Below, piece after piece: positions 12,284 to 58,270 of a stretch of 64,000 nucleotides of DNA. The position numbers were made by a program, and so were the translations under genes. The number at the start of each line of letters is the position of its first letter. The stretch's first letter is position 1. The notes beneath the pieces were generated by a model. It did not search any database and was not told where the DNA came from. It saw nothing but the letters and a program-made list of their open reading frames with translations. The DNA comes from an uncultured Flavobacteriaceae bacterium (GTDB taxonomy: Bacteria; Bacteroidota; Bacteroidia; NS11-12g; UBA955): positions 42-64,041 of the forward strand of contig CAZKOM010000004.1 in assembly GCA_964554385.1 (NCBI GenBank), read 5' to 3'.

Positions 12284-13780
12284 ATGTCACAATTTCGAAT
12301 ATATAACACAATAACCCGCACGATAGAAGCATTTAGTAGCATTAACCCAGGACATGTTGGAATGTATGTTTGTGGACCCACTGTATATGGACCTCCGCAT
12401 TTAGGACATGTTCGGGGACCGGTTGTGTTTGATGTTACCCGCAGGTATTTGCAGCATTTAGGCTACAAGGTGAGATTTGTTCGAAACATTACAGATGTTG
12501 GACACTTAGTTGGGGATGCCGATGAGGGTGAGGATAAATTATCAAAGCAGGCAAAAGTGGAGCAGTTAGAGCCTATGGAGATAGCTCAATTGTACACCGA
12601 TGCTTACAATAAAGTGTTGGATGCAATAAATGTTTTACGTCCGAGCATAGAGCCAAGAGCTACAGGCCATATTATTGAGCAAATTGAGATGATTCAAGCC
12701 ATCATCGATAAAGGTTTGGCTTATGAAGTGAACGGGTCTGTATATTTTGATGTTGAAGCGTATAACAAAGTTAAAGTTTATGGGATCTTAAGTGGACGTG
12801 TGTTAGAGGACTTGCAGGCCGGTGCAGGAAATCAAAGCAGGCAATTAGAGGGACAGGATGAAAAAAGGCATCCGAATGACTTTGCGTTATGGAAAAAAGC
12901 CACGCCAGAACACATCATGCAATGGACAAGTCCTTGGGGTAAAGGCTTCCCTGGATGGCATATTGAATGTAGCGCAATGAGTGCAAAGTATTTGGGCGAA
13001 CAGTTTGATATTCATGGAGGTGGAATGGATTTGCTTTTCCCACATCACGAATGTGAAATTGCACAAAGTACGGCAGCACATAATCATCAGCCTGCGAGAT
13101 TTTGGATACACCATAATATGATAACCATTAATGGTCAGAAAATGGCTAAAAGTTTAAATAACGGGATTATGGTGGAGCAATTGTTTAGCGGTAATCATCC
13201 ATTGTTACAACAGGCATTTTCACCTATGACATTGCGGTTTTTTGTGTTGCAAGCACATTATAGAGGAACCTTAGATTTTAGCAATGAAGCACTGTTGGCC
13301 TCTCAAAAAGGATGGCAACGATTGCAAGCAGCGATTTCATTATTGTCGTCGCTTAGAACCACTGAGAACACTTCTAATGATACATCCGAGGATTGGTTAA
13401 TTGCTCAAGATTTAGAGGATAATATTTTTAATAGTTTAAATGACGATTTGAATACCCCTCAAGTAATCGCTCAACTGTTTGAATTATCAAGAAGAATTAA
13501 TTTGGTGAATGACGGAAAAGCGAAAATCACTGAGGCTACGAAAGTCCATTTTATTCGTTTGTGGGAAACGGTAGGATTAGGAATATTAGGATTGTTGATC
13601 GAATCTGCTGCTGGTGACGATTCTGCTTTGTCTGATGCTATGGATATATTGCTGGGATTGCGTTCTAAGGCTAAAGCGGATAAAAATTGGGCTTTAAGCG
13701 ATGAAATTCGTGATGCACTGAAAGATAAAGGTTTTGAAATAAAAGACGGTAAAGAAGGAAGTACTTGGTTTAAAAATTAA
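12284..13780 (+). CDS. cysS: cysteine--tRNA ligase
   Basis: HIGH-type motif (GPPHLGHVRG), KMSKS-type motif (KMAKSLNN) and Cys-binding WHIECS. The start is ATG 12284, 2 nt after the rfbB stop. Confidence 0.9.
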   Translation: MSQFRIYNTITRTIEAFSSINPGHVGMYVCGPTVYGPPHLGHVRGPVVFDVTRRYLQHLGYKVRFVRNITDVGHLVGDADEGEDKLSKQAKVEQLEPMEIAQLYTDAYNKVLDAINVLRPSIEPRATGHIIEQIEMIQAIIDKGLAYEVNGSVYFDVEAYNKVKVYGILSGRVLEDLQAGAGNQSRQLEGQDEKRHPNDFALWKKATPEHIMQWTSPWGKGFPGWHIECSAMSAKYLGEQFDIHGGGMDLLFPHHECEIAQSTAAHNHQPARFWIHHNMITINGQKMAKSLNNGIMVEQLFSGNHPLLQQAFSPMTLRFFVLQAHYRGTLDFSNEALLASQKGWQRLQAAISLLSSLRTTENTSNDTSEDWLIAQDLEDNIFNSLNDDLNTPQVIAQLFELSRRINLVNDGKAKITEATKVHFIRLWETVGLGILGLLIESAAGDDSALSDAMDILLGLRSKAKADKNWALSDEIRDALKDKGFEIKDGKEGSTWFKN

Positions 13781-13801
13781 TTGATTTAATAACAATTATT
13801 T

Positions 13802-14494
13802 ATGCCTGGTCACTTTACCTTTTACTCAAATACCATTAGTGGGGATGTTGCTTTGTTCGATGAAACTGAATTTAAGCACGCGATACAAGTATTGCGGTAT
13901 CAGATGGGTAGTATTATTTCCTTCACGGACGGAATGGGCGCACTGTATGAAGCAACGATAAATTCTATCGGTAAACGCGATTTTTCGGCTAAAATCGGTT
14001 CAAAGACCGTTGTAGAACCGCTTCCTTCAATAATTCTAGCAATGGGAATATTGAAATCCAGTGATAGAATGGAGTGGGCTTTGGAAAAGTGTACGGAATT
14101 AGGGGTAAGTGAATTTTGGTTTTTAAAAACAAAAAATTCAGAACGTTCTCATTTAAACTTAGATCGATTGAAAAAGGTTGCTATTTCTGCTATGAAGCAG
14201 TCGCATTCGGCCTATTTGCCCCAATTGAAATCTCTAAATTTTGAGGAAGCTGTCCAATTATCTGAGGGGATATCCAACAACAAGTACATTGCATATTGTG
14301 GCGATTTTGATAGTAAGCCCATTCGAAATTCAGAGATTCCAGCGGTGTTTTTTGTAGGACCGGAAGGTGATTTTACAGAATCAGAGTATCAGGTTGCGGT
14401 GAAAAGTGGATTTGTTGGAACAGGTTTAGGACCTTCAATTTTGAGATCAGAAACTGCATCCGTAGCGGTCTTATCCGCCTTGCGTTTGAAATAA
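13802..14494 (+). CDS. rsmE: 16S rRNA (uracil1498-N3)-methyltransferase RsmE
   Basis: 230 aa. The C-terminal VGPEGDFTESEY motif and overall size fit the RsmE SPOUT family. Confidence 0.7.
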   Translation: MPGHFTFYSNTISGDVALFDETEFKHAIQVLRYQMGSIISFTDGMGALYEATINSIGKRDFSAKIGSKTVVEPLPSIILAMGILKSSDRMEWALEKCTELGVSEFWFLKTKNSERSHLNLDRLKKVAISAMKQSHSAYLPQLKSLNFEEAVQLSEGISNNKYIAYCGDFDSKPIRNSEIPAVFFVGPEGDFTESEYQVAVKSGFVGTGLGPSILRSETASVAVLSALRLK

Positions 14495-14509
14495 ATTATC
14501 TTTGTAGCT

Positions 14510-15808
14510 GTGAATATACTTTTGTTAGGTTCTGGAGGCAGAGAACATGCCTTTGCTTATAAAATTTGTCAGTCTGAAAGTGTGTCAAAACTCTTTATTG
14601 CACCAGGCAATGCTGGAACTGCAATGTTGGGAGAAAATGTATCCTTAAATCCTACTGATTTATCTGCTGTTTATGCTTTTTGCAAGCAGGAGCATATTGA
14701 TTTACTTATCCCAGGTAATGAAGATCCTCTGGTTGCGGGTTTGGTTGATTATATTTCCGAAAAGTCAGTGGAGGATGGAATAAATATCCGTGTTGCTGGA
14801 CCCAGTAAATGGTGCGCACAATTGGAGTGATCTAAGGATTTCGCGAAAGCGTTTATGCAACGAAATGGAATACCAACAGCACGTTATGAGTCGTTTGGAG
14901 CACATAATTTATCGCAAGCATATTCGTTTTTAGAAACATTAAGTCCGCCCTATGTGCTAAAGGCCGATGGGTTGGCGGCTGGTAAAGGGGTTATTATAAC
15001 AGAATCTTTACTAGAGGCTAAAGAGGCACTTGCAGAAATGACCCAACAAGGTAAATTTGGCAAAGCCGGTGAGGTAGTGGTGATAGAAGAGTTTTTAAAG
15101 GGAATAGAGTTAAGTGTTTTTGTGGTAAGTGATGGAAATACATGGCAATTATTAGCTTCGGCTAAGGATTACAAAAGAATTGGGGATGGAGATACCGGAT
15201 TGAATACAGGCGGTATGGGGGCAATTTCTCCGGTGCCTTTTGCCGATGAGGAGTTCATGAAAAAAGTAGTGGATCGGATAGTGGAGCCAACATTTAGCGG
15301 ATTGAAGAATGAAGGTCATCCTTACAAAGGGTTTCTATTTGTAGGATTGATGAATGTAGACGGAGATCCTATGGTGATTGAATATAATGTTCGAATGGGT
15401 GATCCCGAGACAGAAGCCATTTTTCCACGATTGGACTCGTCATTATTGGACTTATTGCATTGCATTGCAACTGAAAATTTGCACAACTACAAAGTAGTAT
15501 TAAACGCTTCAACGGCAGCTACCTTGTTTTTGGTTTCTGCAGGATACCCCGGAGATATTGAAAAAGGTAAAGCAATCACATTACCGGTTGAAAAGGATGA
15601 ATTACTGCACGAACAATGGATATTTCATGCAGGAACAGCTATCAAAAATGGTGAATTAGTAACTAACGGGGGAAGAGTAATTGCGGTTACTTCGTTGGGT
15701 GACTCAATTGTATCGGCATTAGACCGATCCAATGAATTGGCTTCTAAGATTCAATTTGAAGGTAAATATCAGCGAAGTGATATAGGATTAGATTTACTTA
15801 GAAAGTAG
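14510..15808 (+). pseudogene. purD: phosphoribosylamine--glycine ligase (PurD) interrupted by an in-frame TGA at 14828-14830
   Basis: ORF 14510-14830 is the PurD N-domain (MNILLLGSGGREHAFAYKI) and ORF 14855-15808 is the ATP-grasp and C-terminal domains (LKADGLAAGKGV). Both are in the same frame. The stop replaces the Gly of the conserved AAQLEGSK motif, giving CAQLE*SK. Confidence 0.75.
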
Positions 15809-17244: not shown

Positions 17245-17691
17245 ATGAAAATTGGAAGAAGAAGGCGCGAAGAAGCGGAAGTTGAATCTTCGGCGATGAA
17301 CGACATCATGTTTTTCTTGATGTTATTCTTCCTAATTGCTTCTACGTTGGCAAATCCCAATGTTATTAATATTACGCTTCCTAAAGCAAAAACCACAACA
17401 GCAGTTCATACAAAAACGTTGCCCATTACCGTGAAAGTAGCCGGTAAGGGTACTGAGAATGAACAGGTTCAAATTTATTTTGAGCAAAAAATGGTTGCAT
17501 TTGAAGATATGGAGGCTATACTTACTGAAGAACGAGATAAGTACGCCGATCCTGCAAATCCACAAAATGGATTAAACGTTGTATTGCGTTTAGAAAAAGA
17601 TTTGGAGGTTCAGGACATGGTAGACGTTATGCAAGTGGTAGCCAATTTGGGTATTAAAATGGTGCTTGCCACCGATAAATCAACTAAATAG
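17245..17691 (+). CDS. exbD: ExbD/TolR biopolymer transport protein
   Basis: 148 aa. The N-terminus MNDIMFFLMLFFLIASTL is a single TM helix, with the periplasmic domain typical of ExbD. Confidence 0.8.
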   Translation: MKIGRRRREEAEVESSAMNDIMFFLMLFFLIASTLANPNVINITLPKAKTTTAVHTKTLPITVKVAGKGTENEQVQIYFEQKMVAFEDMEAILTEERDKYADPANPQNGLNVVLRLEKDLEVQDMVDVMQVVANLGIKMVLATDKSTK

Positions 17692-17704
17692 TCTCCGATA
17701 CTCC

Positions 17705-19003
17705 GTGATTATTAGAGTATTTAATTGCGGGCTTTCAATTTTACTGGGTTTATCATCCACCTTTGTCAAGGCGGATAACTGTGTTTTGTTAAATGGAACT
17801 TCGGACACCTCCAGAGGAAAGGAGGATTTATCGGATTATTTTCAAGTAGAAGTAATGCGCGGATTTTTGGCTGCTCATACTCAAGGGATGCAGGAATTGT
17901 ATCAGCATACGTATGGGGTACAGGTTCATTTTCAGCGTTCTATGTTGCGAAATCGTTTTCATCCCAATCAGTTTAAAAAACCCCTGTATTACGGAACAAC
18001 TATAAATTATCAGAATTTAGGCAGCCCAGCTGCTGGTATTGCAGTTGGACTGGGATTTTCTTTATTTATTCCTGCGGGTGAAACGCAAAAAACGCGTTTT
18101 ACCGTTGGAATGGGTGGTGGTTATTTAAGTAAACCCTACTCCTTGGAAAATCCTAAAAATATTGCCATTGGCTCCCATATCAATGGGATGATGCGATTGG
18201 GAATTCAACGGGATATTTGGCCAACAAATGTGTCAAATAGTAGATCTACCGCCCAAATAAATATTGGAAGGACTCATTTTTCCAATGGTAATTGGCGTCA
18301 GCCTAATTTGGGGGTAAACATGCCCTATTTGTCATTATCGTATCGGTATAAATTTGAAATAAATCCTCAAGAATCGCAATCTGTGCTCGGCGATAGAAAT
18401 AGATCAACGAAACAATGGTTGAAGATCCAAGAACATTCAACCAGGATAAAGGAGTTAAATGCCAGCATTGAACAGGGATTAAAGAAAAGAATTTTAGGTA
18501 CCTTAATAACTAAAAATGGTGTTATTAATAGAACTTGGGATATAATAGGTGGATTGCGGGTTGGACGAAGGCAAATGGAGATTGATCAAGAGGCGAATTT
18601 TACGGTAGGGATAGTAGAAGTGTTGGCGGAGAGACAGTACACATTCCATGAATTAACAACCAATAAAAACTTGCGGTCCTATTCAGCGCATCCCCATGTA
18701 GGATTAACAGTATTCTTAGATAGAACCTATCAATACAATAAGCCCAATCCGTTGCCTCAGTATAACTTTGCTAAAACAACGGAATTAGCGGCAATTATTG
18801 GAAATCGATATGTTTTTGGAAGAGTGGGTGTTTTAACCGATGTTGGGTTTTACTTATACCGTCCTTCTGATTCAAAACGAAGGTATTTTCAAGCATTAGG
18901 TTTGAGTTATTTAGTTAATTCCAAGTTGATATTAACCGCAAGATTAAAGGTACACTTATCTGCAGCCGATTATATTGAATGGGGAATGGGATATCGATTT
19001 TAG
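17705..19003 (+). CDS. outer-membrane beta-barrel protein, PagL-like acyloxyacyl hydrolase (lipid A deacylase) family
   Basis: A GTG start gives the signal peptide VIIRVFNCGLSILLGLSSTFVKA. THFSNGN resembles the His-x-Ser-Asn-Gly catalytic motif of PagL-type deacylases, and the C-terminal ...GMGYRF ends in an aromatic residue as beta-barrels do. The ORF-track start at 17666 overlaps exbD. Confidence 0.4.
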   Translation: MIIRVFNCGLSILLGLSSTFVKADNCVLLNGTSDTSRGKEDLSDYFQVEVMRGFLAAHTQGMQELYQHTYGVQVHFQRSMLRNRFHPNQFKKPLYYGTTINYQNLGSPAAGIAVGLGFSLFIPAGETQKTRFTVGMGGGYLSKPYSLENPKNIAIGSHINGMMRLGIQRDIWPTNVSNSRSTAQINIGRTHFSNGNWRQPNLGVNMPYLSLSYRYKFEINPQESQSVLGDRNRSTKQWLKIQEHSTRIKELNASIEQGLKKRILGTLITKNGVINRTWDIIGGLRVGRRQMEIDQEANFTVGIVEVLAERQYTFHELTTNKNLRSYSAHPHVGLTVFLDRTYQYNKPNPLPQYNFAKTTELAAIIGNRYVFGRVGVLTDVGFYLYRPSDSKRRYFQALGLSYLVNSKLILTARLKVHLSAADYIEWGMGYRF

Positions 19004-29912: not shown

Positions 29913-32063
29913 TTAGACTGTTGGATTCGTTGATTCAGAAGAATCAACCTCAGAATTTGAAGTGGTTTCTGAACTATCTAAGGCATCCGAATTTTGGTTA
30001 TTGGACGGCATCTCAGTATTCAGTTCTGAAGCTGCTTCTGGAACTTGAATTGAATCAGACGCAATTGTAGTATGTAAATGATTGGCTTGGTTCTCAAGTT
30101 GGCTATTTGCGACTTCTTGAACTGCATCGGATTCTTCGTAAGGCCTTTTACCTATTAATCGTTCTAAATCGGATTTAAAAATAATCTCCTTTTCTAATAA
30201 TTCTTTGGCAACCGCTTCTACTTCAGCTCGTTTTTCAGTTAAAAGCGCGATGGTTCTTCGGTAAGCATCTTCAATCATGCTTCTGGCTTCTTCATCGATA
30301 AGTTGGGCTGTTTTTTCGGAATAGGGTCTCTGATAACCGTACTCCCCTGTAGGATCGTTGAAGGAAACATTACCAATATTTGCATTCATACCATAAATGG
30401 TAATCATGCTGTAGGCGAGTTTTGTAATTCGCTCTAAATCGTTTTGTGCTCCAGTTGATACTTTTCCAAAGAATATTTGTTCTGCTGCTCTTCCACCCAG
30501 TGTCATTACCATAGAATCTAACAATTGTTCGGTTCTGTATAGGTATTGTTCTTTGGGTAGATATTGGGCATATCCCAACGCAGCTACACCTCTAGGAACT
30601 ATGGAAACCTTTAGTAAAGGATCTGCAAATTCTAAGAACCAGCCGGCAACGGCATGTCCTGCCTCATGGTAAGCAACAATTTTCTTTTCTTCTGGAGATA
30701 TTATTTTATTTTTCTTTTCCAAACCTCCAATAACACGATCAATAGCATCTTGGAAGTCTTTCATTTCTACTAATTCTTTTCCTCTTCTGGCTGCAATTAA
30801 TGCAGCTTCATTGCAAACGTTTGCAATTTCTGCTCCTGCAAAACCAGGAGTCTGAGTAGCAAGTTTATGAGCATCTACATCGGTGGCCAATTTGGTTAAT
30901 GGCTTTAAGTGCACGTTGAAGATTTGCTCTCTTCCAACAATATCGGGTCTATCAACACTTATTTGACGGTCAAATCTACCCGGTCTCATTAACGCGCTGT
31001 CTAATATATCGGCCCGGTTGGTAGCTGCTAAAATGATAACACCTGAATCGGTACCAAAACCATCCATTTCAGCCAATAATTGGTTTAGGGTATTTTCTCT
31101 TTCGTCATTAGAGCTTTGAATTAAATTTTTTCCTCTCGCTCTACCGATAGCATCAATTTCATCGATGAAAATAATAGATGGTGCTTTTTCTTTAGCTTGT
31201 TTGAAAAGATCTCTTACTCTACTTGCTCCTACTCCCACAAACATTTCTACGAAATCAGAACCAGACAAAGAGAAAAATGGAACACCTGCTTCTCCTGCTA
31301 CAGCTTTTGCCAATAACGTTTTACCTGTTCCAGGAGGGCCTACAAGCAGTACGCCTTTTGGTATTTTACCACCTAAATTTGTGTATTTTTTCGGGTTTTT
31401 TAAGAAGTCTACTACTTCCATTACTTCTTCTTTTGCTTCTTCTAACCCGGCAACATCTTTAAATGAGACATTAACTTTAGTATCTTTATCGAATATCTGT
31501 GCTCTTGCCCGTCCAATATTAAAAATGGATGCACCGCCACCGGCACCACCACCACCAGACATTCTGCGCATGATAAGATTCCAAAAAATCAAGAAAATGG
31601 CAAGCATAAATACCCAGTTGAACAGTTCTCCGAATAAATCGGAATGAGTTTCCCATTCAATTACCAATTCATCGGGGTTCAATTCTTTGGCTTGCATTGT
31701 TTTCTTTAACTCTTGAATTTCATTGTTAAAGAATCCTTTTTCAATTTCAAAACTATAATTTGGCTCTGCAGAACCCATTAAATCTTGTCTTGGCTTAGCA
31801 TTTTTATAACGCTTTTGTTGAATTGCTTCTTTGGTAAGATAAACATTTACCACGCGTTCATTTTGAATTACAAGTTTTTTAACGTCACCTTGTAAAATCA
31901 TTGCTTTAACATCTCTCCATTTTGTACTTTGCCCTGAATTTTGGGGCAAAAACAACATAGCCATTAGAATTACAAAAAGAATTCCATAAAGCCAATTAGG
32001 ATTGAATTTAAAACCGTTTGTGTTTTGTTTCTTTTTGTCTTGTTTCGGTTCGTGATTTTCCAT
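29913..32063 (-). CDS. ftsH: ATP-dependent zinc metalloprotease FtsH
   Basis: Two N-terminal TM helices, AAA+ module ([23 protein letters not shown], second region of homology) and HEAGHA zinc motif. The acidic/Ser-rich C-terminal tail is common in Bacteroidota FtsH. Confidence 0.9.
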
Positions 32064-32355
32064 CTCGCTTAAATAGTCAAAGTTTAGACCAATTGCTGGT
32101 ATTTTTCAAAACTACGAATTATTACAGGCAATCAGTCATGGATATGGACGAATCGTCATATTTTTTTGATAACCTAAGAAAATAAGTTTGGCAGATTTGA
32201 TATTATGATATTTTGGTATTTGATTTAACAAAAAGACTGTAAATAAGTTCTAGAATATTTCATGTAGACACCTAACATATACATAATGTTATATATTCTT
32301 AATTATTGATTATACAACTTTTTTTCATCTACTTTTGTAGAATAAGTTCGAAAAC

Positions 32356-34272
32356 ATGATAAATAAGTTATTGCAAAATAGGATTTTGGCAGCCAATAAA
32401 AAGTATATATTGTTAGCCATTTTTGTGATTATTGGTGTTTTTTTCTTGATTTTCTTACGAAGTGATTCTGATATTAATCCTAAGATTACTCGCTCCAATA
32501 CTGCAGATAGTTTATGGCAACAGTTGGAAAAGATCAAGGAGGGAACTTACGAGATGGTTACTTTTAGAGAATTACATAGACTATCTCAAATGCCTAATAA
32601 AAAGGAAGAACATGATAAATTGTTAGGTTATGTATTAAAGCGAGGTGAACAGGAAGGTAATCAACGTGTTCAAGTGTATTACAGCATAAATAGGTCATTT
32701 GACTTTATTTGGCATGGTAAATATGATTCAGCCTTACTGTATGGAAAGAGGGCTATGGAAATTGGTAAGGGATTTTCGGATATTTCTCCCTGTATGTATT
32801 ATTCGCCCATCTCTATAGCATATTATCAATTAGGCAATTTGAGTGAGGCAATAAATTTCATGAAAATGGGGTATGAGCATGCCAAAAAGGTGGAGGATTA
32901 TTCAAATTTGAATAATTACGCAACCAATCTAGGTACTTACTATTTTAATAATGGCATGTATGGATCTGCATCGCGTTATTTTCAAGAGGCAGTTGCAGCA
33001 GGGCAGAAGACGGGAAAGATTAGTAATGTATTAATTAATAATATTATATCGATTAAGTCTACAGAATTAGGCGTTCTAACAACCATTGAAGATTGGAAAA
33101 AATATGATTCAATTCTCAGCAGGCCAAACAATGAATTTGAGCGACAGTTAACTACATTAAATCGAGTTAATTTATTTCAAGCTCAGAAGCGTTGGGAGGA
33201 AGCATCTCGGTTATTGCAGCAAACCCCCGATAGTACATTAGACTTATATTTTATCATTAATAAAATGTCTTTGGTATTAAACGATTTGGATAGAAAACCG
33301 GATCGTTTGATGCAAATGACTGATTATATAGGTAAACATAAAAATTGGTTACGACGCAATTTTACACAAGGCTTAATGGAATTGCATACCTATTTGAATG
33401 CCGTAGTTGAATATAACCCCAATTTGCTTCCGATGGATACATTAAGACGGTGGGAGTTAGATAACGATGCTAATTTGAATCAAAATGCATTGGCTAAGAG
33501 TTTCTTAAATGAGTTATACGCGAAACTGTATATTTCTTCTGGAAATTATGCTATGGCTAATACTAAGTTAAATGCGGCCATGGTGTATACTAGGGAATAT
33601 ATGCAGACCAATGATTCATTAAAACGTGCTGATTTTATTGAGCGAATGGAAAATGCACGTATCAATGAAAAGTTGGACGATTTAACTTTAGAATTACAGC
33701 AAAAAACGCAAAGAAATCAACTGGTTACAATCGTATTAATAGCTTTATTACTCATTCTAGGATTAACTATTTTAGTATTATGGTTATTAAATCGTAAGCG
33801 TGAGAAATCTCTTGAATTAATACAGGTACAATTACATCAGCAGGAAGAAGAACAACGATTCTTGCGTAAAGAGCGCGAGTTGAACGATAGAATTGTTTCA
33901 ATTACTCATATGATGATGGAGAAAACGGGTGATTTAGTGAAGCAATTAAAAGGAATGAAATCGGCCAACAAAGACGATTTAGAAGAAATTAGACGGGCAT
34001 TGGAAGCGATGGTTCGAGTAGATACCGGGTCTAATCCCCAAATGGCCGATACATTAATGAAGGAAAATGATGTTCTTTTAAATAAATATCCAGCAATTCA
34101 AAGTTTGAATTTAACTGAAAGAAGGATATTTATACTTTCTGTAGAAGGATTTAAATCCAAAGACATTTCAAACTTGGTAGGTGTAACTCCTCAGTATATA
34201 CACAATGTTCGTTCTAAAATTCGTAAAATTTTAGGTGTTGAAAATCAGATACACTGGGAAGAATTGAAGTAA
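32356..34272 (+). CDS. membrane-anchored TPR-repeat / LuxR-family HTH transcriptional regulator
   Basis: 638 aa. N-terminal TM (ILLAIFVIIGVFFLIFL), TPR-like helical repeats, a second TM (LVTIVLIALLLILGLTILVLWLL) and a C-terminal LuxR/GerE HTH (LTERRIFILSVEGFKSKDISNLVGVTPQYIHNVRSKIRKIL). Confidence 0.6.
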   Translation: MINKLLQNRILAANKKYILLAIFVIIGVFFLIFLRSDSDINPKITRSNTADSLWQQLEKIKEGTYEMVTFRELHRLSQMPNKKEEHDKLLGYVLKRGEQEGNQRVQVYYSINRSFDFIWHGKYDSALLYGKRAMEIGKGFSDISPCMYYSPISIAYYQLGNLSEAINFMKMGYEHAKKVEDYSNLNNYATNLGTYYFNNGMYGSASRYFQEAVAAGQKTGKISNVLINNIISIKSTELGVLTTIEDWKKYDSILSRPNNEFERQLTTLNRVNLFQAQKRWEEASRLLQQTPDSTLDLYFIINKMSLVLNDLDRKPDRLMQMTDYIGKHKNWLRRNFTQGLMELHTYLNAVVEYNPNLLPMDTLRRWELDNDANLNQNALAKSFLNELYAKLYISSGNYAMANTKLNAAMVYTREYMQTNDSLKRADFIERMENARINEKLDDLTLELQQKTQRNQLVTIVLIALLLILGLTILVLWLLNRKREKSLELIQVQLHQQEEEQRFLRKERELNDRIVSITHMMMEKTGDLVKQLKGMKSANKDDLEEIRRALEAMVRVDTGSNPQMADTLMKENDVLLNKYPAIQSLNLTERRIFILSVEGFKSKDISNLVGVTPQYIHNVRSKIRKILGVENQIHWEELK

Positions 34273-34328
34273 CAGCAGAATTAAGATTTCGTACTGTAAT
34301 AGGATAGCATTTATGTAGCGATTCGCGC

Positions 34329-35636
34329 TTATTTAAATTGACTTAATACCTCAAACAGTTTATAAATTTCAGTAAATGAATTGTATAGAGGTGTTGGGGC
34401 CATTCGAATAACATTGGGCTCTCTCCAATCGGCAATAATGTCATGATTGGCAAGAAAATCGAAGATTGATTTACCGTTGCTGCCTGTTAGAATACTCAAT
34501 TGACAGCCTCTTTCATGAAAATTATGGGGTGTAATTATTTGTAGTTGAAGTGTAGGATTTAATTCGTTTGCTTCCGCGATACAATCAAATAAGAATTGAG
34601 TTAATTCTTCGCTTTTCCTTCTTAAATTTTTAACTCCGCCAGCTTGTTTGAAAATTTCCAAGCTCGCATGGTGAACAGCCATCCCGAAAACTGGAGCATT
34701 TGACATTTGCCAACCCGCGGCTCCTGGTTCTGGGATGTATCCTTTTTGCATCAAAAAACGAACATCTTCTTTATGTCCCCACCAACCTGCTAAACGCGGA
34801 GTATCTGGATTTAGTCCATGTTTTTCATGAATAAAAACGCCGCTGACATTTCCTGGCCCGGAATTTAAGTATTTATACGAACACCAAGCAGCGAAATCTA
34901 CATTCCATTGGTGTAGCTCCAATGGAATATTGCCCGCCGCATGGGCTAAATCAAATCCTGCCAATGCACCCACTTGGTGTGCTTTTTGGGTGATTTCGGG
35001 AATGTTGAAATATTGGCCTGTGTAATATTGTACTCCTGAGAAAAAACATAATGCTAATGTGTCTCCGAGTTTTTCAATTTCTGATATAATATCTTCTGTT
35101 CTTAAGGTATATTCACCAGATCTTGGACTTAGTTCAACTACAGCATCACTATAGGATAGCCCTCTACTTTCCACATGTGTTTGTACGGCATACATATCGG
35201 AAGGAAATGCACCTGCTTCCATGAGTAATTTGTAACGTTTTGGAATTAAATTACCGCTGGAATCTTTATTGAATGTTGGCCGATAAAAGCTATGTAATAG
35301 TAGATGTAGGTTAACGGTTAAATGATTCATTACCACTACTTCGTGGGGTTTGGCTCCTGCGATTTCAGCGGTTAAATCTGTTAAAAATTTATGGTAGTGA
35401 AACCAAGGTTTTTTTCCATGAAAATGACCTTCAACTCCCCATTTTGCCCAATCTTCAAGTTCTGATTGCAGTGCTTTCTGAGCTGATTTGGGCTGTAATC
35501 CTAGTGAGTTCCCGCACAAGTAGATAACATCATTTCCATGAATACTTTCAGGAAAGATAAATTCATTTTTGAAATCTTTAAATGGATCAGCATGGTCTTT
35601 AGCTGTTGCAAAATTGCGATTGATTTCAGTTCTCAT
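34329..35636 (-). CDS. kynU: kynureninase (PLP-dependent)
   Basis: VIYLCGNSLGLQP matches the kynureninase IYLDGNSLG motif. WCSYKYLNSGPG matches CTYKYLNGGPG around the PLP lysine. 435 aa. Confidence 0.8.
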   Translation of the reverse strand: MRTEINRNFATAKDHADPFKDFKNEFIFPESIHGNDVIYLCGNSLGLQPKSAQKALQSELEDWAKWGVEGHFHGKKPWFHYHKFLTDLTAEIAGAKPHEVVVMNHLTVNLHLLLHSFYRPTFNKDSSGNLIPKRYKLLMEAGAFPSDMYAVQTHVESRGLSYSDAVVELSPRSGEYTLRTEDIISEIEKLGDTLALCFFSGVQYYTGQYFNIPEITQKAHQVGALAGFDLAHAAGNIPLELHQWNVDFAAWCSYKYLNSGPGNVSGVFIHEKHGLNPDTPRLAGWWGHKEDVRFLMQKGYIPEPGAAGWQMSNAPVFGMAVHHASLEIFKQAGGVKNLRRKSEELTQFLFDCIAEANELNPTLQLQIITPHNFHERGCQLSILTGSNGKSIFDFLANHDIIADWREPNVIRMAPTPLYNSFTEIYKLFEVLSQFK

Positions 35637-35705
35637 ACGTTTGGCAAAGGTAGTATAGTCCTAAGGATTTTACCATGATACCCATCAGGGAATCAACATT
35701 GTTTT

Positions 35706-36224
35706 GTGATCCTAAAGTGTATTATTACTTTTTTATTGGATTGTTATACCTTTGTGAATCAATTTACTACGGCCTTGAAATTTGAAGAAGCAATTAAGCA
35801 AAAGAAATTTGAGTCAGACGCTCAAAAAGCATATTTAAATATTTTATATACTGCGAGTTGGCTTCAATCTGAATCGAGGGATTTGTATAAAAAACACGGT
35901 ATTACCAGTCAACAGTATAATGTTTTACGCATTTTGCGGGGTCAGTATCCAAATCATGCTAATCCCAAATACATTAAGGATGTAATGTTAGATAAAAATC
36001 CGGATTTGACGCGGTTGTGTGATCGATTATTAAAGTTGGGCCTGATAGAAAGAGCGGCTTGTCCGGAAAATAGAAGGAAGATGAATATAGGAATTACCGA
36101 TCAGGGATTGGCTTTATTGGAGACAATTGACCCAGAGGTATCTGCGTATTTTGAACAAATTGCAAATAAGAGTAAAATGGATTTTGCTTTATTGAGTGAT
36201 TTACTTGATACCATGCGTGGTTAA
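35706..36224 (+). CDS. MarR family transcriptional regulator
   Basis: Winged-helix core: QQYNVLRILRGQ...LTRLCDRLLKLGLIERAACPENRRKMNIGITDQG. Confidence 0.65.
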   Translation: MILKCIITFLLDCYTFVNQFTTALKFEEAIKQKKFESDAQKAYLNILYTASWLQSESRDLYKKHGITSQQYNVLRILRGQYPNHANPKYIKDVMLDKNPDLTRLCDRLLKLGLIERAACPENRRKMNIGITDQGLALLETIDPEVSAYFEQIANKSKMDFALLSDLLDTMRG

Positions 36225-36874
36225 CGTTTGCGCATCAACGTTAAACCATCTCGGATTGGTATTAAAATAGTTTCAAATTCCGTTAAGCTTTGAGCATACA
36301 CATTGAATTCGTGCATGTTTTTCGTGTCTTTATCCGTAATTCTATCAGATTCTATTACCACCCGATTACTCCAAAGGGTGTTGTCAAATAACAAAATTCC
36401 ATTATCACTTAGGAGTTTTTTTGTTATTTCTAGATAATTTTTGTAATTGGTTTTGTCTGCATCTACGAAAATGAAATCAAAATTTTTGGTTTCATCCCAA
36501 TCGGCAAGAATATCTAGTGCATTTCCACCGTGCCAATGTACAAGATGATCTTTTTGGTGTTGTTTCCAAAAGTTTTTTGTTTTCCATAGGGTTTCGGCAT
36601 CGGCTTCAATAGAATGTATTTCACTGCCTTGAGGTAGATTTTTTACTAAGCAGGCGGTGGCATAACCGGTAAAAGTGCCAATTTCCAATACCCGTTTTGG
36701 TTGATGGATAGCTACAAGTTGACTTAAAAGTAATCCTTGAAGGTGTTCGCTTAACATTCTTGGATTAATCATTTTTTTCCAAGTAAAATGGTGGATAGCC
36801 TGTAAAAACGGGTCTTCAGGCGTAGAATGATTCGCCGAATAATCGTGAATTGAAGTATGCCAATTGCTATGCAT
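36221..36874 (-). CDS. class I SAM-dependent O-methyltransferase (caffeoyl-CoA OMT-like, family 3)
   Basis: VLEIGTFTGYATACL (SAM motif I) and FDFIFVDADKTNYKNY (cation and catechol-OMT-type motif). The start is taken at the internal Met; the ORF track extends it to 36940. Confidence 0.75.
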   Translation of the reverse strand: MHSNWHTSIHDYSANHSTPEDPFLQAIHHFTWKKMINPRMLSEHLQGLLLSQLVAIHQPKRVLEIGTFTGYATACLVKNLPQGSEIHSIEADAETLWKTKNFWKQHQKDHLVHWHGGNALDILADWDETKNFDFIFVDADKTNYKNYLEITKKLLSDNGILLFDNTLWSNRVVIESDRITDKDTKNMHEFNVYAQSLTEFETILIPIRDGLTLMRKR

Positions 36875-36950
36875 GAAAGTAATACAAAAATGAACTTGTT
36901 TTTTTAAAGGAAAAACATATTTTCGCGTTGAATTAATCAAGAGGCAAATT

Positions 36951-37172
36951 ATGTACTGGACACTTGAATTGGTAAGTTATCTTGACGATGCTCCATGGCC
37001 TGCAACAAAGGACGAATTAATTGATTATGCAATTCGTTCTGGAGCACCTTTGGAAGTGATAGAGAACTTACAAGAACTGGAAGATGATGGTGAGCCTTAC
37101 GAGAGTATCGAGGAGATTTGGAGTGATTATCCAACGGACGATGACTATTTCTTCAACGAAGACGAGTTATAA
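36951..37172 (+). CDS. DUF2795 family small protein
   Basis: 73 aa. YLDDAPWPATKDELIDYAIRSGAPLEVIENLQEL followed by an acidic tail fits DUF2795. A minus-strand ORF at 36949-37134 largely overlaps it and was judged less likely. Confidence 0.55.
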   Translation: MYWTLELVSYLDDAPWPATKDELIDYAIRSGAPLEVIENLQELEDDGEPYESIEEIWSDYPTDDDYFFNEDEL

Positions 37173-37200
37173 CTCCTCAGACTTGTAAGATTACTACATT

Positions 37201-37229
37201 AAAGACCGTCTTAATAGGCGGTCTTTTTT
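37201..37229. terminator. bidirectional rho-independent terminator between the DUF2795 gene and hflX
   Basis: AAAGACCG-tcttaatagg-CGGTCTTTTTT: 6-bp GC-containing stem flanked by an A-run and a T-run. The hflX stop codon lies in the loop. Confidence 0.6.
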
Positions 37230-38377
37230 AATAGTAGGGATACGATAGTATCGCGTAACTTTTGAATATTCGATTGTTCGGATGCGGAAATAAATACCGC
37301 AGGGGCATTTTCTTTTGCGATCCAACTTTTTTCAAATTGATCGATGGATAATCCTGAGGATCCCACAAAAAAGTCATCGGGTTTCCCTTTGAAAGCATCC
37401 ACTTTATTAAATACAATTAATTCTTGCTTATTAGAAGCACCAATTGCATGCAGTATCTCGGTGACTGCCTGCATTTGTTTTTCAAAGTTGGGATTAGAGA
37501 TATCTACTACGTGTACTAATAAATCTGTTTCTATGGCTTCGGCCAATGTACTTTTGAAACTCTCAATCAGTAAAGTTGGCAGTTTTCTAATAAATCCTAC
37601 CGTATCGGAAAGTAGGAAAGGGATTACTTTTCCGTCCTGTTCAGGATGATGAAAAACCACTTTTCGAACGGTTGAATCTAACGTAGCAAACAATTTATTT
37701 TCTACCAAAACATCGGAACGAGAAAGCAAGTTCATGATGGTACTTTTACCAACATTGGTATATCCAACCAAGGCAACGCGGTAGGTATTTTCTCGGGATT
37801 TTCTTTGCGTAACCCCAATTTTTTCAATTTGAGCTAGTTTATCCTTCAGTAAACTAATGCGATTTCTTAGTGCTCTTCGGTCTGTTTCGATTTCAGTTTC
37901 ACCCGGACCTTTCATTCCAATACCCCCTTTTTGTTTCGAAAGGTGGGTCCACATACCGGTTAATCTTGGCAACATAAAAATGCTTTGGGCTAATTCAACT
38001 TGTGTTTTTGCCTGTGCTGTTTTTGCATTCGCCGCAAATATGTCTAGGATTAAATGAGTTCGCGTAATGACTTTAACATTGTTTAGTTCTGTTTCGATAT
38101 TTTTAATTTGAGCCGGTGATAAATCATCGTCAAAAACTGCCATATCTACATTGTTTTGCTTACAGTAATCGCTAATTTCTTGTAATTTTCCTTTGCCAAT
38201 GTAAGTTTTAGGATGGGGATGTTCTAATTTTTGGGTAAATCGTTTAATGGGGGTACCGCCACTAGTAATGATAAGTTGTTCCAATTCATCCAATGTTTCC
38301 TCCATTGGAAAATCAGATTTTTGGGTTTCAACGCCAACCGTTATGGCTTTTTCTATGCTTTTTGGAGTATCTTTCAA
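37211..38377 (-). CDS. hflX: GTPase HflX
   Basis: 388 aa. HflX N-domain, G-domain with G1 GYTNVGKST, G3 DTVGF, G4 NKVD. Confidence 0.85.
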   Translation of the reverse strand: MKDTPKSIEKAITVGVETQKSDFPMEETLDELEQLIITSGGTPIKRFTQKLEHPHPKTYIGKGKLQEISDYCKQNNVDMAVFDDDLSPAQIKNIETELNNVKVITRTHLILDIFAANAKTAQAKTQVELAQSIFMLPRLTGMWTHLSKQKGGIGMKGPGETEIETDRRALRNRISLLKDKLAQIEKIGVTQRKSRENTYRVALVGYTNVGKSTIMNLLSRSDVLVENKLFATLDSTVRKVVFHHPEQDGKVIPFLLSDTVGFIRKLPTLLIESFKSTLAEAIETDLLVHVVDISNPNFEKQMQAVTEILHAIGASNKQELIVFNKVDAFKGKPDDFFVGSSGLSIDQFEKSWIAKENAPAVFISASEQSNIQKLRDTIVSLLLKKTAY

Positions 38378-38472
38378 GGAGTAGGGAGTAAAATGTTAAA
38401 AAAGGAGTACAAAATTAAGGTTCACTTTGGGATTATCCCTCCTAGCGATGAAATTTGGAGAATATTATCTCT

Positions 38473-39975
38473 ATGAAGAAAACCACTACCCTACTTTTGG
38501 CGTTTATATTGGGTTCGTTTTCTTTAATCGGCCAGTCGATTTTCATTTCGAATAAATCTCGACTAAATAATAAACGAAATCAATTTCATCGGCCCATTGG
38601 ATTGTATCAGGATCAAATGTTTACACTGGATTTTTCTAGTTACAATTTGGAATCGGGTTTTACATTGGAGCGCTACGATGCACAGTTAGGATTTTCTAAA
38701 AGCCGAGATTTTAAAGTGGCAAGTAGAAATTGGGTTTTGAAGGTTTTTTTGTCTGATTCGATGATTTTTTGGGTAACCATTAATAGACAGAAACGAGGAC
38801 AAATAGAAGTTAATTTACACTCAATTTCTACTACATTAGATGGTGAACCTCAGCAACATTCATTAGGGGTATATGATTGGGGGGAGATTGGGTCAGGGGA
38901 TATATGGGTTGATTTTTCTCAAGATCGTAAGAAATGGGTTTTGGCAGTTTTGTACAATAGCTCAAGTAAAGGTTTTCAGCCTTCGGCTAGGGTTGGATTT
39001 CTAATTGCTGATATCCAAAGCAAGTACCGCTATTTGGATACTACCTTAGATACCAGAAATTCTGCCTATGAGTTGGAATGGAAGTCGTTAGAAATTAATA
39101 ATAACAGTGAAGTAGCTGCATGTTTTTTTGATGATGAGCGATTGGAAAAGACCTCATTATTTTCTGGTAAGCGGCAGGAAAAAAGCGAGGCATATCAATA
39201 TTTGCTGGTTAAACAGTTCATACAACAGGGTGTTTGCGAGGCTAGTGGAAATATTCGCGATGCGATGATTTATTGTCATCCAATCTCGGGCAATTTTTAT
39301 ATTGCCGGATATTTTCAAGAAACAGATTCTAAGGGATTGGATGGATGTTTTATTCGGTCTTTACAGTTGTCCAAGGATAGTTTGGTTTTATTGCATTGGT
39401 TTTCAGACAGTGAACAGCGGACGTTAATGAGCAATTTGAATTCGCGTAAAAGTGAGAAAGTACAGAATTTCGAAATACGGGACGTAATTGCTTTAGATAA
39501 TGGTGGTTGGCTGTTGATTGGGGAACAATATTATGTAACGAGGCAGATGGAGACCTATTATGTGAACGGATTGCCTCAAAATACAACGCGGCAATTCTAT
39601 CATTATGGTAATTTAGGATTAAATTTTTTAAATGTTGATTTGGAAAAGCATGGCGAACCCATTGATTCGGTTGTAGTAATTTCAAAAAATCAGGTTTCTT
39701 CCAATTCTGGGGCTCATTTACTAGGTTATGGCATGTACATATGTAAGAATACCATAAATTTCATCTATAACGATAGTGAGACGGAGGCAAATCGTATCAT
39801 GCATATTAAAATTAACAATAAATTGGATATGGAGCGTGGTTGGTTGTTTAGACAAGAGAGTATTATTGGAGAAATCATACCCGATGAAGGGAAGCAGATT
39901 GATTATTGTATGTTTGCAGTACCAGTAATTCGAAGTAAAGAATGGTACTGGATGCAGATTTTATCCGATGATTGA
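38473..39975 (+). CDS. hypothetical secreted protein
   Basis: Signal peptide MKKTTTLLLAFILGSFSLIGQ. About 500 aa with no recognisable domain. Its 3' end overlaps the next gene by 8 nt, so the two are likely co-transcribed. Confidence 0.4.
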   Translation: MKKTTTLLLAFILGSFSLIGQSIFISNKSRLNNKRNQFHRPIGLYQDQMFTLDFSSYNLESGFTLERYDAQLGFSKSRDFKVASRNWVLKVFLSDSMIFWVTINRQKRGQIEVNLHSISTTLDGEPQQHSLGVYDWGEIGSGDIWVDFSQDRKKWVLAVLYNSSSKGFQPSARVGFLIADIQSKYRYLDTTLDTRNSAYELEWKSLEINNNSEVAACFFDDERLEKTSLFSGKRQEKSEAYQYLLVKQFIQQGVCEASGNIRDAMIYCHPISGNFYIAGYFQETDSKGLDGCFIRSLQLSKDSLVLLHWFSDSEQRTLMSNLNSRKSEKVQNFEIRDVIALDNGGWLLIGEQYYVTRQMETYYVNGLPQNTTRQFYHYGNLGLNFLNVDLEKHGEPIDSVVVISKNQVSSNSGAHLLGYGMYICKNTINFIYNDSETEANRIMHIKINNKLDMERGWLFRQESIIGEIIPDEGKQIDYCMFAVPVIRSKEWYWMQILSDD

Positions 39976-40957
39976 GCAGTTTAGGCAAAATAAATTAGGC
40001 ATTGGCGTATTGCTGTTTATCGCCGCGTTGTTGGTACGCGTTTTTTTGTTATTGCTAGTAAAATCCAATCCTCTTCCAATTAATAATATTGGCGTTTTTG
40101 ATGGGGCGATACAGTGGTTAAACAGCCATTTGTATATTTCAATGGCTATTTCCTTTTTACTGTTAATATTTCAGTCTTATTTGGTTAATTCCATATGTAT
40201 CGGTTCTGGCGCGTTGCAAGGTAGTGGCATTTTAGGGACCTATTTCTTCTTATTATTGAATACATTGTTTATTGAAAATGTGTTTTTTTCAATCGGACAA
40301 ATTGGTAATTTGTTCATCCTGTTAGGTCTTAATTTCTTGTTTCGTTTAAAAGAGGGCTACGATACTCGATTATTATTCTACAGTGCATTTTTATTTGGTA
40401 TCGGTATTCTATTTATTCCAGATCATATATGGATATTAGTATTTGTCATTTTAGGTATTTTAATATTCAAAGCCATTGTATTTAAAGATGTTATCGCCGT
40501 GGTATTAGGGTTGATTATGCCTTTGTATATTACTAAATCACTGTGGTATTTATTTAACCTACAATCCGTGGAAATTGGAAATTTAGAGGTGGTTCAACTG
40601 TCACTTCAGTCTCTATTGAGTTTAGGGTTATTTCCTAATACGGACTACATTGTCATGGGAATATTTTTACTTGCTGCGTTATTGGGTTTATTCCAACAAA
40701 TAGGCACCTACTTTAATCGCAATATTGAAGCTAGACGGAGTATATCATTAAACGCTCTTTTCTTTGCTTATAGTTTATTTATGTTGCTTTTGCATTGGAG
40801 AAATCTCGCACAGTTCCACATGTTAATTTCCATTCCATCAACATTTTTACTTGTGAATTTCTTCAATGAAGATAGGATTGGTTTGTGGAAACGATTTATC
40901 AATTTATTGTTACTTGTTTTAGCAATATTCTCCTTGGTAGGTCGTTTTTTGATTTAA
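39968..40957 (+). CDS. hypothetical polytopic membrane protein
   Basis: 329 aa with about 9 predicted TM helices (for example GIGVLLFIAALLVRVFLLLL, ISMAISFLLLIFQSYL, LFGIGILFIPDHIWILVFVILGILIF). No family recognised. Confidence 0.4.
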   Translation: MIEQFRQNKLGIGVLLFIAALLVRVFLLLLVKSNPLPINNIGVFDGAIQWLNSHLYISMAISFLLLIFQSYLVNSICIGSGALQGSGILGTYFFLLLNTLFIENVFFSIGQIGNLFILLGLNFLFRLKEGYDTRLLFYSAFLFGIGILFIPDHIWILVFVILGILIFKAIVFKDVIAVVLGLIMPLYITKSLWYLFNLQSVEIGNLEVVQLSLQSLLSLGLFPNTDYIVMGIFLLAALLGLFQQIGTYFNRNIEARRSISLNALFFAYSLFMLLLHWRNLAQFHMLISIPSTFLLVNFFNEDRIGLWKRFINLLLLVLAIFSLVGRFLI

Positions 40958-41640
40958 AGATTATTTTTAAGCGAGTTCAATAAATCAATTTCCTGGCAAT
41001 TTGCGATAATGTCCTTTTCTATTTCGTTTAAGGCAGTAATAATAGGATTTGTATTATTGGGATGCCAGGGCGTTGGAATAGCTAGAGAGTGATGTATTCT
41101 ATGTATAGCGTAAGTGATTCCCGAAAATTCCCGATAATGAAATAGGTATTGGGATTCTAAGAATTTATCAAATCGTTGAAGAAATAACTCTTTATCTTTA
41201 TGATTGAGCAATGTTAGTAATGCTTTATAACATTGCCTTTGTTCTGCAAGTGTATTGTAGAATTCATAAAGGCTATTTAAGTGATTATCTATAAGTATTT
41301 TATCGATAATTAATTCTACTGAAACATGAAGGGAAAACCACCATCGCTCTAAGCCATGCGTGGCACCCAATTTACTCCAAGATTCTCGATGGTTTTGGTA
41401 AATATTTTCGAAAAATTTAGATTGATGAAACAGCTTATCTCTTTCAACATGTTGCCATCCGCCATCGCAAAAAGCCATTAGATTTGCCGAAATTATTTCT
41501 TCATTATTTTTAAGAGAAAGCCACGAGATACGGTTATTATTTGGTAAAAAATGCCTCAATAAATCTGGGGCAATCAAAGCGGCATTAAATTGTGGTTGAT
41601 TTGATTTTCTATCAACTAAAAAGTGAGCAAAAAAGTTCAT
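40954..41640 (-). CDS. acpH: acyl carrier protein phosphodiesterase (AcpH) family protein
   Basis: The N-terminus MNFFAHFLV resembles the AcpH start MNFLAHLHLA. Size is about 200 aa with scattered His/Asp residues. Moderate confidence from the N-terminal motif only. Confidence 0.5.
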   Translation of the reverse strand: MNFFAHFLVDRKSNQPQFNAALIAPDLLRHFLPNNNRISWLSLKNNEEIISANLMAFCDGGWQHVERDKLFHQSKFFENIYQNHRESWSKLGATHGLERWWFSLHVSVELIIDKILIDNHLNSLYEFYNTLAEQRQCYKALLTLLNHKDKELFLQRFDKFLESQYLFHYREFSGITYAIHRIHHSLAIPTPWHPNNTNPIITALNEIEKDIIANCQEIDLLNSLKNNL

Positions 41641-42232: not shown

Positions 42233-43897
42233 TTAGTCATTTTTACGAGGGTTGTTGGGTGTTTTATCCAATTGATAAACCAAGAAACTTGGTGATTTGA
42301 AAAAAATTGGCAAATTGTAATTATCACCGCCAAGCTTTTCGAGATTATTATTTACAACTAAGTAATCTGCATTGCAGTTTATTATACTGTCTAGGTGGCT
42401 TTGTGAATGTAATTGATGCGGGAAGCGAACCCAGCCTTTATGGTTTAGAAAATAAAGTTCTTGGGGATTAACACCCGCATTAGAAACAACTAACGATTTA
42501 AGAGGTATTTTTTTCCCGATTGTCTCTAATTCCATTTTGTATTTTTCTGATGGCTTAATGGATAATTCGTGCATCTGATTCAACAGTGCTTCCGAATTGG
42601 CAACAAGTAGAAGGATTGTTATCAAGGTTTTAGCGGAAGTTTTTTTGATTGTAGTTTTTTGGGTAGTTACTGACTGTACTGTTTCTACTTTCTGTTGAAT
42701 ATATTCTAAACCAAGGGCAGCGATAAATGCCATAAAAGGCATAAACGGAATGATGTAGTATGTGTGTTTTGGAAATACATCTCCTGTTTTAATAATGAAT
42801 ATTACGAATACAACTACAAATGCAAAAAACGAAAATTTTACTTTTTTAAAATTATCAATATCAATTAATTGAATATTTTTATTTAAATAATTTGTTGAAT
42901 ATTTGTTTTTGAATAAATAAGCAAGACCTAATAGAAATAATAATAGAGTAACAAATGAATAGAATGCTGTAAAATAGAATTTTTCTAATAGTAGTCGCCA
43001 ATGTGGAACAATTTCTACAAATCCTTCGTAAAGCGATTTAGGATAATAAAGTTGAAAAGATTTATTAAGCTCTGGAACCCGATAAAAATACCATATCAAG
43101 CCGGGAATAATCGAAATTAAGCACGTTGTTATAAATCGGATTTGAATTAAGTTTGGTGGAAATTGATTGGATTTTTTGTATTGTTCTACGAGTTTAGGAG
43201 TTATGAATACCAGTGTTGCTAGCCATGCAATGGCGGGTAACTTGCTTAGAACAGCCAAGGAAAAACTCAAAAATATGTATACAAGGTGATGTGGTTTAGT
43301 TGTGATTAAATACAGCTGTGCTTGTCTAATTCCTATTAATACCAATGCAATTGAAAAGGTATCGGGCATAATTTTTCTACTAAATGAGAACCATACGGAG
43401 AACAGTAAAATTGCGGAGGTATTTTGGGCGATTTGTTGAGAAAAAGCATGCAATAAGAATTGATACAAGGCCCAAACTCCCCAGGTGGAAATAAGTAAAT
43501 TTATCCATCTACCCTGCCAGTGTTGGTATCCGATGACAGAATTAAAAAAAGCGATTATGGCTTGAAAAATGGGAAATTCTGAACCAATGAAACCTTCATT
43601 ATTTCCGGAAAAATCGATTTGTGGATTGAAAAGGTTAAATCCATTGTTTTGTAAGTTTCGAGCGATCATGGCCGTAACGGTTTGTCGCCAATTATGTCCA
43701 ATTTCTAGTGGTGGATTGGTTATACCAATGCATTGAATAACTAAGAATACTACTAAAAGTATGTGTATAAATTGAATTTTATGATAAAAGGGTTTGAAAT
43801 TCACGGTAAGATTACCTTGATTTAGGTGCTTCGCAATTATACGTTTAAAATTCAAAACAATGCTGTTTCGTGGACTTGCTTTGTTGTAAATTGCCAT
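42233..43897 (-). CDS. polytopic membrane protein, GT-C-like (ArnT/PMT-type glycosyltransferase candidate)
   Basis: 554 aa. About 11 TM helices over the first ~400 aa, followed by a ~130-aa soluble C-terminal domain. This is the GT-C architecture, but no catalytic motif was confirmed. Confidence 0.3.
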   Translation of the reverse strand: MAIYNKASPRNSIVLNFKRIIAKHLNQGNLTVNFKPFYHKIQFIHILLVVFLVIQCIGITNPPLEIGHNWRQTVTAMIARNLQNNGFNLFNPQIDFSGNNEGFIGSEFPIFQAIIAFFNSVIGYQHWQGRWINLLISTWGVWALYQFLLHAFSQQIAQNTSAILLFSVWFSFSRKIMPDTFSIALVLIGIRQAQLYLITTKPHHLVYIFLSFSLAVLSKLPAIAWLATLVFITPKLVEQYKKSNQFPPNLIQIRFITTCLISIIPGLIWYFYRVPELNKSFQLYYPKSLYEGFVEIVPHWRLLLEKFYFTAFYSFVTLLLFLLGLAYLFKNKYSTNYLNKNIQLIDIDNFKKVKFSFFAFVVVFVIFIIKTGDVFPKHTYYIIPFMPFMAFIAALGLEYIQQKVETVQSVTTQKTTIKKTSAKTLITILLLVANSEALLNQMHELSIKPSEKYKMELETIGKKIPLKSLVVSNAGVNPQELYFLNHKGWVRFPHQLHSQSHLDSIINCNADYLVVNNNLEKLGGDNYNLPIFFKSPSFLVYQLDKTPNNPRKND

Positions 43898-49134: not shown

Positions 49135-49623
49135 ATGGAAAATGTATTTCTTTACAACATGGAATGGTCTGTGGTAGTAGGAATCGTTTTGGTTTCTACC
49201 GTTAAGTATGCAATTGGAGTAGGAATGGCCGTTTTGTCGATTTCTTCCCCGTGGCTGGGATTTTTATTTACCTCTTTAGGTGGAATTTTGGGAGTAAGCA
49301 TTTGGGTGTATTGGGGAGAAAAATTGCAATCGTTGTATTTTGATTATCGCAATCGTAGAGGTGTTATTTCAAAAAGATTTTCCAAAAAAAATAGGTGGTT
49401 GGCGCGGGTAAGATCGGAGGGGGGATTGCCAATTATCGCATTATTGGGTCCAGCAATAATTAGTTTGCCTGTTGCTTGTTTTATTGCCACGGGTATGGGT
49501 ATTAGTAGGTGGAAAGTATGGAGAGCAATCAGTATTTCGGTTTTATTGTGGGGGGTGATGTTTTTCGGATTGTTGATTTTCTTTGATATAGATTTATCCC
49601 ATTATTTCCGACATATTTTCTAG
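49135..49623 (+). CDS. hypothetical small membrane protein
   Basis: 162 aa with 4 TM helices and a basic cytoplasmic loop (YRNRRGVISKRFSKKNRWLARVR). No family recognised. Confidence 0.35.
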   Translation: MENVFLYNMEWSVVVGIVLVSTVKYAIGVGMAVLSISSPWLGFLFTSLGGILGVSIWVYWGEKLQSLYFDYRNRRGVISKRFSKKNRWLARVRSEGGLPIIALLGPAIISLPVACFIATGMGISRWKVWRAISISVLLWGVMFFGLLIFFDIDLSHYFRHIF

Positions 49624-49679
49624 TTTTTTTGACTTCTGGGATTACTCATTGTAAATTGTGCGATAATTCATTGATTAGC

Positions 49680-51728: not shown

Positions 51729-51774
51729 GTAGTTTAATAAAAATTGTATTTGAAGAATGATCAATGAAGCTAGG

Positions 51775-58223: not shown

Positions 58224-58270
58224 CGTCCCAAGTATATTGTATAGTAAAACTATTTATAATTATTTAATTC

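Follow-up and report, generated by a model that had tools for sequence, protein, structure and literature searches.

The purD gene in the stretch of DNA analysed here (64,000 nucleotides, hereafter the window) is interrupted by an in-frame TGA at the codon of an invariant glycine. The stop is a single G-to-T transversion (GGA to TGA) at position 14828, it is private to the window, and the ancestral state is GGA. We think that it is probably a real and very recent loss-of-function allele. On this account a recent change at 14828 would have turned the GGA codon of Gly107 into a genuine UGA stop, read as such under the standard bacterial code; translation would end after Glu106 and release the isolated N domain, and a restart at Met116, if any occurred, would yield a protein that lacks the ATP-binding Lys109. 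The result would be a nascent knockout, and the strain or its population would need external purines unless another route exists. We infer both that the organism's DNA truly carries this T and that the product is inactive.

The interrupted gene and its active site

The features of the window on which the argument turns are the following:

14510..15808, plus strand: purD (phosphoribosylamine--glycine ligase), 432 codons with a GTG start; full-length match to TIGR00877, with GARS_N, GARS_A and GARS_C domains
14510..14830, plus strand: N-terminal ORF of codons 1-106 plus the premature TGA, 106 aa; a complete GARS_N domain, ending in Glu106
14828..14830, plus strand: the premature TGA stop, codon 107; T at 14828 is seen in the window only, and homologs have Gly
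14855..15808, plus strand: downstream ORF from Met116 (MQRNGIPTA), 317 aa; the rest of GARS_A plus GARS_C, without residues 107-115
14806..14977, plus strand: mosaic patch in purD; 13 differences in 172 bp to the sister assembly L164, and similar to the sister assembly L177

The TGA at 14828-14830 is the sole interruption of a frame that runs from the GTG at 14510 to the TAG at 15806-15808. It lies in the codon context CAA TTG GAG TGA TCT AAG GAT, which gives the peptide CAQLE*SKDFAKAF around the EGSK motif. With Gly at codon 107, the 432-aa translation scores 464 bits against TIGR00877 (cut-off 288), with residues 1-429 aligned to profile positions 1-423 of 425, and solved PurD structures align to it over their full length (E about 1e-100). 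The Pfam domains of PurD are divided between the two ORFs, the downstream one entering GARS_A at profile position 10 and also holding GARS_C. The two ORFs are one purD with one internal stop, and a chance pair of ORFs is excluded. A reading made from the letters of this DNA without database searches (the sequence-only reading) had placed the TGA at the conserved Gly of purD, with both parts in one frame and the downstream part beginning at the internal Met at 14855; the ORFs and the TIGR00877 match bear this out. The GTG start and the 20 nt upstream of it are identical in the sister strains considered below. By sequence the gene thus belongs to the PurD family, yet its EGSK motif is not on one uninterrupted polypeptide, since the stop falls between E106 and K109.

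The location of the stop can be related to the known active site by alignment to the PurD of A. aeolicus (PDB ID: 2YW2), where E106, G107, S108 and K109 of the window correspond to E100, G101, S102 and K103. The A. aeolicus residues E100 and K103 are ligands of Mg2+ and of ATP, respectively (PMC8880213), and the stop therefore falls between their counterparts. Six residues (E106, G107, S108, K109, K113 and F115) do not vary among 160 Bacteroidota loci more distant than the sister strains, and the position aligned to codon 107 is Gly in 160 of 160. Some distant PurDs have Ser at the Gly107 position, for instance 2qk4_A (the human GART structure) and 5vev_A.

The break lies exactly at the boundary between GARS_N and GARS_A, and an in-frame ATG follows 24 nt past the stop codon, which would suit an enzyme made as two polypeptides, an N domain (residues 1-106) and a second product reinitiated at Met116 (14855). 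We regard such a split as highly improbable. The second product would lose residues 107-115, among them five that all 160 loci share (G107, S108, K109, K113 and F115), and K109 is the ATP-binding lysine. No relative was found with such an arrangement. Met116 and the 24 nt upstream of it are the same in the intact sisters, bar one synonymous polymorphism, and therefore no start signal has evolved for a restart. The homologs have Met at this position in 136 cases and Leu in 24 of the 160, and Met116 reads as an ordinary conserved internal residue. The sequence-only reading had listed a functional two-polypeptide PurD among its explanations, and the loss of the five residues together with the unadapted restart site disfavours it.

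Sister strains, the private base and the mosaic patch

The sequence-only reading had proposed a comparison with purD in sister strains, and we made it with DNA from 13 independent sister assemblies (L161, L162, L163, L164, L167 and L170 to L177) whose nucleotide identity to the window ranges from 86.7 to 99.8%. The closest, L164, is 99.81% identical over 20.7 kb without gaps, followed for instance by L162 (98.9%) and L163 (98.4%), with L161 the most distant at 86.7%. The gene order rsmE-purD-DUF502-exbB-exbD-PagL is common to all 13, and each has an intact purD of 432 codons with Gly107. The codon is GGA in 11 and GGT in L161 and L175, and the codons that flank it are otherwise the same. With Gly in 13 of 13 sisters and 160 of 160 Bacteroidota loci, the TGA is therefore a single private transversion, and a GGA-to-TGA nonsense change, the first of the explanations offered earlier, is indeed what happened to this codon.

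Protein records give a similar picture. They include a 90% protein cluster of 37 members, the closest of which (P0131) is 98.6% identical to the window PurD, and all full-length entries listed for the 90% protein clusters have Gly at this position. Relatives that span the whole gene are single proteins of 430-447 aa, the shorter entries being fragments cut at contig ends. The TGA allele was found in no second assembly among the sisters, and neither the 106-aa nor the 317-aa ORF product is recorded in the protein records searched, so that the base is without independent confirmation.

Among GTDB species representatives, the best PurD match is only 70% identical and comes from a Sphingobacteriia MAG, and a metagenome scan with PurD gave no match above 61% identity. 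Many metagenome assemblies contain strains 96-99.8% identical to the window. The window seems to come from an uncultured Bacteroidota group, frequent in metagenomes but scarcely covered by reference genomes. One sequencing run, SRR12487035, yielded a contig (L179, window 30387-37926) that is 99.97% identical to the window, with 2 mismatches in 7.5 kb, and another (L167, window 13751-14950, covering purD) that is 98.9% identical and reads GGA; the run may hold the window's strain plus another. Further public runs with near-identical strains are SRR8369886 (L166, 99.85%) and those from which ERZ4216102 and ERZ4214608 derive.

Against six of the sisters, dN/dS lies between 0 and 0.14 upstream of the stop (codons 1-106) and between 0.07 and 0.18 downstream of it (codons 108-432), and purD has no indels relative to the sisters. 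Purifying selection thus acted as usual on the codons on either side of the stop up to practically the present day. From the low dN/dS and the lack of indels it follows that the stop is either extremely young or not real. Neither relaxed selection nor any further lesion after the stop was found, and the remaining two private bases of the gene are one synonymous and one tolerated. The earlier proposal of a nonsense change had come with the idea of a purine-auxotrophic or decaying lineage; the substitution is borne out, but no decay is seen, as dN/dS lies between 0 and 0.18 on both sides.

The region around the stop is unusual in its pattern of variation. Between the window and L164 there are 39 mismatches, 13 of which fall in the 172 bp at 14806-14977 (7.6%) compared to 26 in 20521 bp elsewhere (0.13%), an excess with a Fisher p of 4e-18. 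Outside this patch L164 is the closest sister, whereas inside it the window matches L177 at all but three bases. Either a short tract was imported by recombination from an L177-like strain, or the assembly path is strain-chimeric here. More generally, the purD alleles of the 13 assemblies form a patchwork of shared variants, which implies that short-tract recombination is frequent in the population or that strain-chimeric assemblies are.

The only private bases of purD are the stop itself (14828 G>T), 14864 C>A (H119N) and 14977 C>G (synonymous). In the 7.6 kb for which four or more close sisters are available, the window has seven private bases, and three of them within 150 bp is a tighter cluster than expected by chance (scan-corrected P about 0.02). 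They may lie so close together because an unsampled donor strain had diverged, or because the consensus is locally unreliable. Two further ideas about these bases were considered and rejected. A base-calling error linked to a methylation motif might be suspected, as a GATC lies directly beside the mutated base, but just one of the seven private bases has such a neighbour. H119N might be taken for a sign of decay, but Asn is found at position 119 in 15 of 160 homologs.

These observations bear on the possibility, which we take seriously, that the organism has GGA and an intact purD, and that the T at 14828 arose as an error of base calling or consensus, or through a strain-chimeric path across a variable stretch of purD in a mixed sample. 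Sequencing error was already among the earlier explanations, and it retains a substantial minority share of the probability. It would account for an allele that is a singleton among at least 13 assemblies with products that are unrecorded, for a gene without any decay, and for the position of the stop and the gene's two other private bases inside the 172-bp switch from L164-like to L177-like sequence. However, the differences in the patch are mostly synonymous and are shared with real alleles of other samples, which speaks for genuine variation rather than noise, and the other two private bases are harmless. The window also aligns to the sister contigs over positions 3802-64000 (about 60 kb) without indels, bar N-filled scaffold gaps in two sisters, and the comparison with sisters revealed no other disrupted gene in the 64-kb window, which argues for a very low general error rate.

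That assemblies of this lineage can contain artefact-like patterns is shown by a second case. In L164, which has 5.6x coverage, the PagL-domain gene (window 17666-19003) is split into calls of 176 and 227 aa by a private nonsense change (TCA>TAA). The nonsense codon lies within five private G:C-to-T:A changes (four C>A and one G>T) in 21 bp, at L164 14433-14453, equivalent to window 18234-18254. This lesion looks like a low-coverage assembly error, and the class of change that dominates the cluster is the same G-to-T class as that of the purD stop, a further point in favour of an artefact at 14828. Private bases of the window itself near the PagL site are at 18270 and 18296.

Returning to the real allele, which we favour, the clean alignment over about 60 kb indicates that the assembly is not generally error-prone, and private substitutions, at the frequency given above, are normal here. 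Nonsense alleles are also common in bacteria as brief polymorphisms (Belinky et al. 2021, PMC7918605). Against it, the strong constraint on purD, a core gene, makes a naturally fixed knockout less likely a priori.

Genetic code, local signals and the rest of the window

The standard code is in ordinary use throughout the window. The stops of 46 long non-overlapping ORFs are TAA in 35, TAG in 6 and TGA in 5, so that TGA demonstrably serves to terminate genes here, and the TGAT context of the premature stop recurs at the natural ends of two genes. Coding density is about 92% with the standard code (code 11), at a G+C content of about 38%, and the TGA in purD is the only in-frame one found. Given this stop usage and coding density, a global reassignment of UGA as in code 25 can be considered excluded by the coding pattern of the window, as the sequence-only reading had rightly argued, and the match with the Gly meaning of UGA in code 25 is fortuitous.

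The coincidence of the stop with a Gly codon position is what would speak for a recoding of UGA, as Gly (as in code 25) or as selenocysteine, and to this we assign next to no probability. Besides the use of TGA as a stop in 5 of the 46 ORFs and the density of standard coding sequence, strains 98-99.8% identical use GGA, no UGA-reading tRNA lies within the window (its only tRNAs are tRNA-Glu(TTC) and tRNA-Gln(TTG)), and no homolog among the 160 loci has Cys or Sec at the codon-107 position. A SECIS-like hairpin or read-through structure was sought by folding 14815-14910 (96 nt), which folds no better than its shuffles (z = +0.84). In the window, an Rfam scan gave nothing beyond the two tRNAs (no riboswitch or other RNA), no tandem repeats were detected, and a scan for promoter and terminator consensus sequences near the stop gave nothing above chance level.

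A stop can also be real but leaky, with near-cognate decoding of the UGA supplying a trickle of full-length PurD, in which case it would be a strong down-regulator instead of a knockout. UGA is generally the leakiest stop codon, which lends this some plausibility, and its near-cognate decoding is usually as Trp. The remainder of purD is intact, as a leaky stop would require. In-frame stops are, moreover, widespread in bacteria, though mostly as short-lived polymorphisms, and many of them have been proposed to act by down-regulation (PMC7918605). For the window we nevertheless find a leaky stop improbable. The stop is absent from all relatives (0 of 13 sisters), while that study considered orthologous stops in at least two genomes (PMC7918605); the same TGAT is found at natural gene ends; the fold downstream offers no stimulatory structure; and no suppressor tRNA is found within the window. 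The invariant Gly also lies beside catalytic residues, where a bulky residue in its place would be likely to damage enzyme function. Read-through, as put forward earlier, thus finds no supporting signal in the stop context, the local structure or the relatives. A related scenario, to which we give similarly little credence, is that the UGA is real and is tolerated through read-through or coupled reinitiation, as an expression-dampening purD polymorphism spread by short-patch recombination. Programmed read-through, selenocysteine insertion and a functional split enzyme are unlikely, and leaky read-through, a split enzyme and recoding remain unlikely even when taken jointly.

The genes of the window are of Bacteroidota type and include proteins with Por_Secre_tail sorting domains. 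No pur gene other than purD was found in the window, prs being the only related one. Seven ORFs of 162 to 699 aa (within 38455-41640, 49135-53463 and 54916-56658) lack any Pfam match at E <= 1e-5; most of them have similarly long counterparts among the gene calls of the sister scaffolds L178 and L181, though the L181 counterpart of 54916-56658 is cut by an N-filled scaffold gap (a 194-aa call). Such gaps are present in L178 and L181 at window 43127-43249 and 55592-55812, where the window is continuous and where Tandem Repeats Finder reported nothing. At 56721-59425 there are two adjacent photolyase-related genes, with the same lengths in L181, encoding a 500-aa protein of the DPRP family and a 384-aa protein that matches FAD_binding_7 alone and has no recognisable N-terminal photolyase domain. 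They are followed at 59494-60267, on the minus strand, by a strong homolog (313 bits) of ComA ((2R)-phospho-3-sulfolactate synthase), here in a Bacteroidota-like genome. Most genes are on the plus strand and GC skew is positive in all 2-kb bins but 30-32 kb, which holds a large ftsH-like gene on the minus strand; this fits a window that lies wholly on one replichore, with the plus strand leading.

Comparison with known systems

The finding is an ordinary one, with nothing new in kind, and fits the known class of internal-stop pseudogenes and polymorphisms. If the base is real, the strain would be a fresh purine auxotroph, at the first step of gene loss, in a population with freely recombining purD alleles, and if it is an error, purD is to be annotated as intact. 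Either way it has no bearing on variation in the genetic code or on enzyme architecture, and matters little beyond annotation.

The closest likeness is to the nascent pseudogene that pipelines such as PGAP label as having an internal stop. The window likewise has one in-frame stop in a conserved gene that is intact in close relatives, the ORF being disrupted here and whole in 13 of 13 sisters, but differs in that further decay is absent, with no frameshifts and low dN/dS. The in-frame stops studied by Belinky et al. (2021, PMC7918605) are shared by at least two genomes and accompanied by continued purifying selection, whereas the stop in the window is a singleton, for which no time has elapsed for selection to be measured. 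Code 25 of the SR1/Gracilibacteria, where UGA encodes Gly, resembles the window in that its UGA stands at a Gly position of homologs. The window, however, has a single such UGA, UGA is a working terminator there, the organism resembles Bacteroidota, and GGA is the codon of near-identical strains. As for the enzyme, the solved ATP-grasp PurDs of A. aeolicus (2YW2) and E. coli (PDB ID: 1GSO) resemble the window gene in their N, A and C domains and in the EGSK motif, at 40-50% identity between solved structures and the window PurD, and differ from it in that the polypeptide encoded in the window stops after the N domain.
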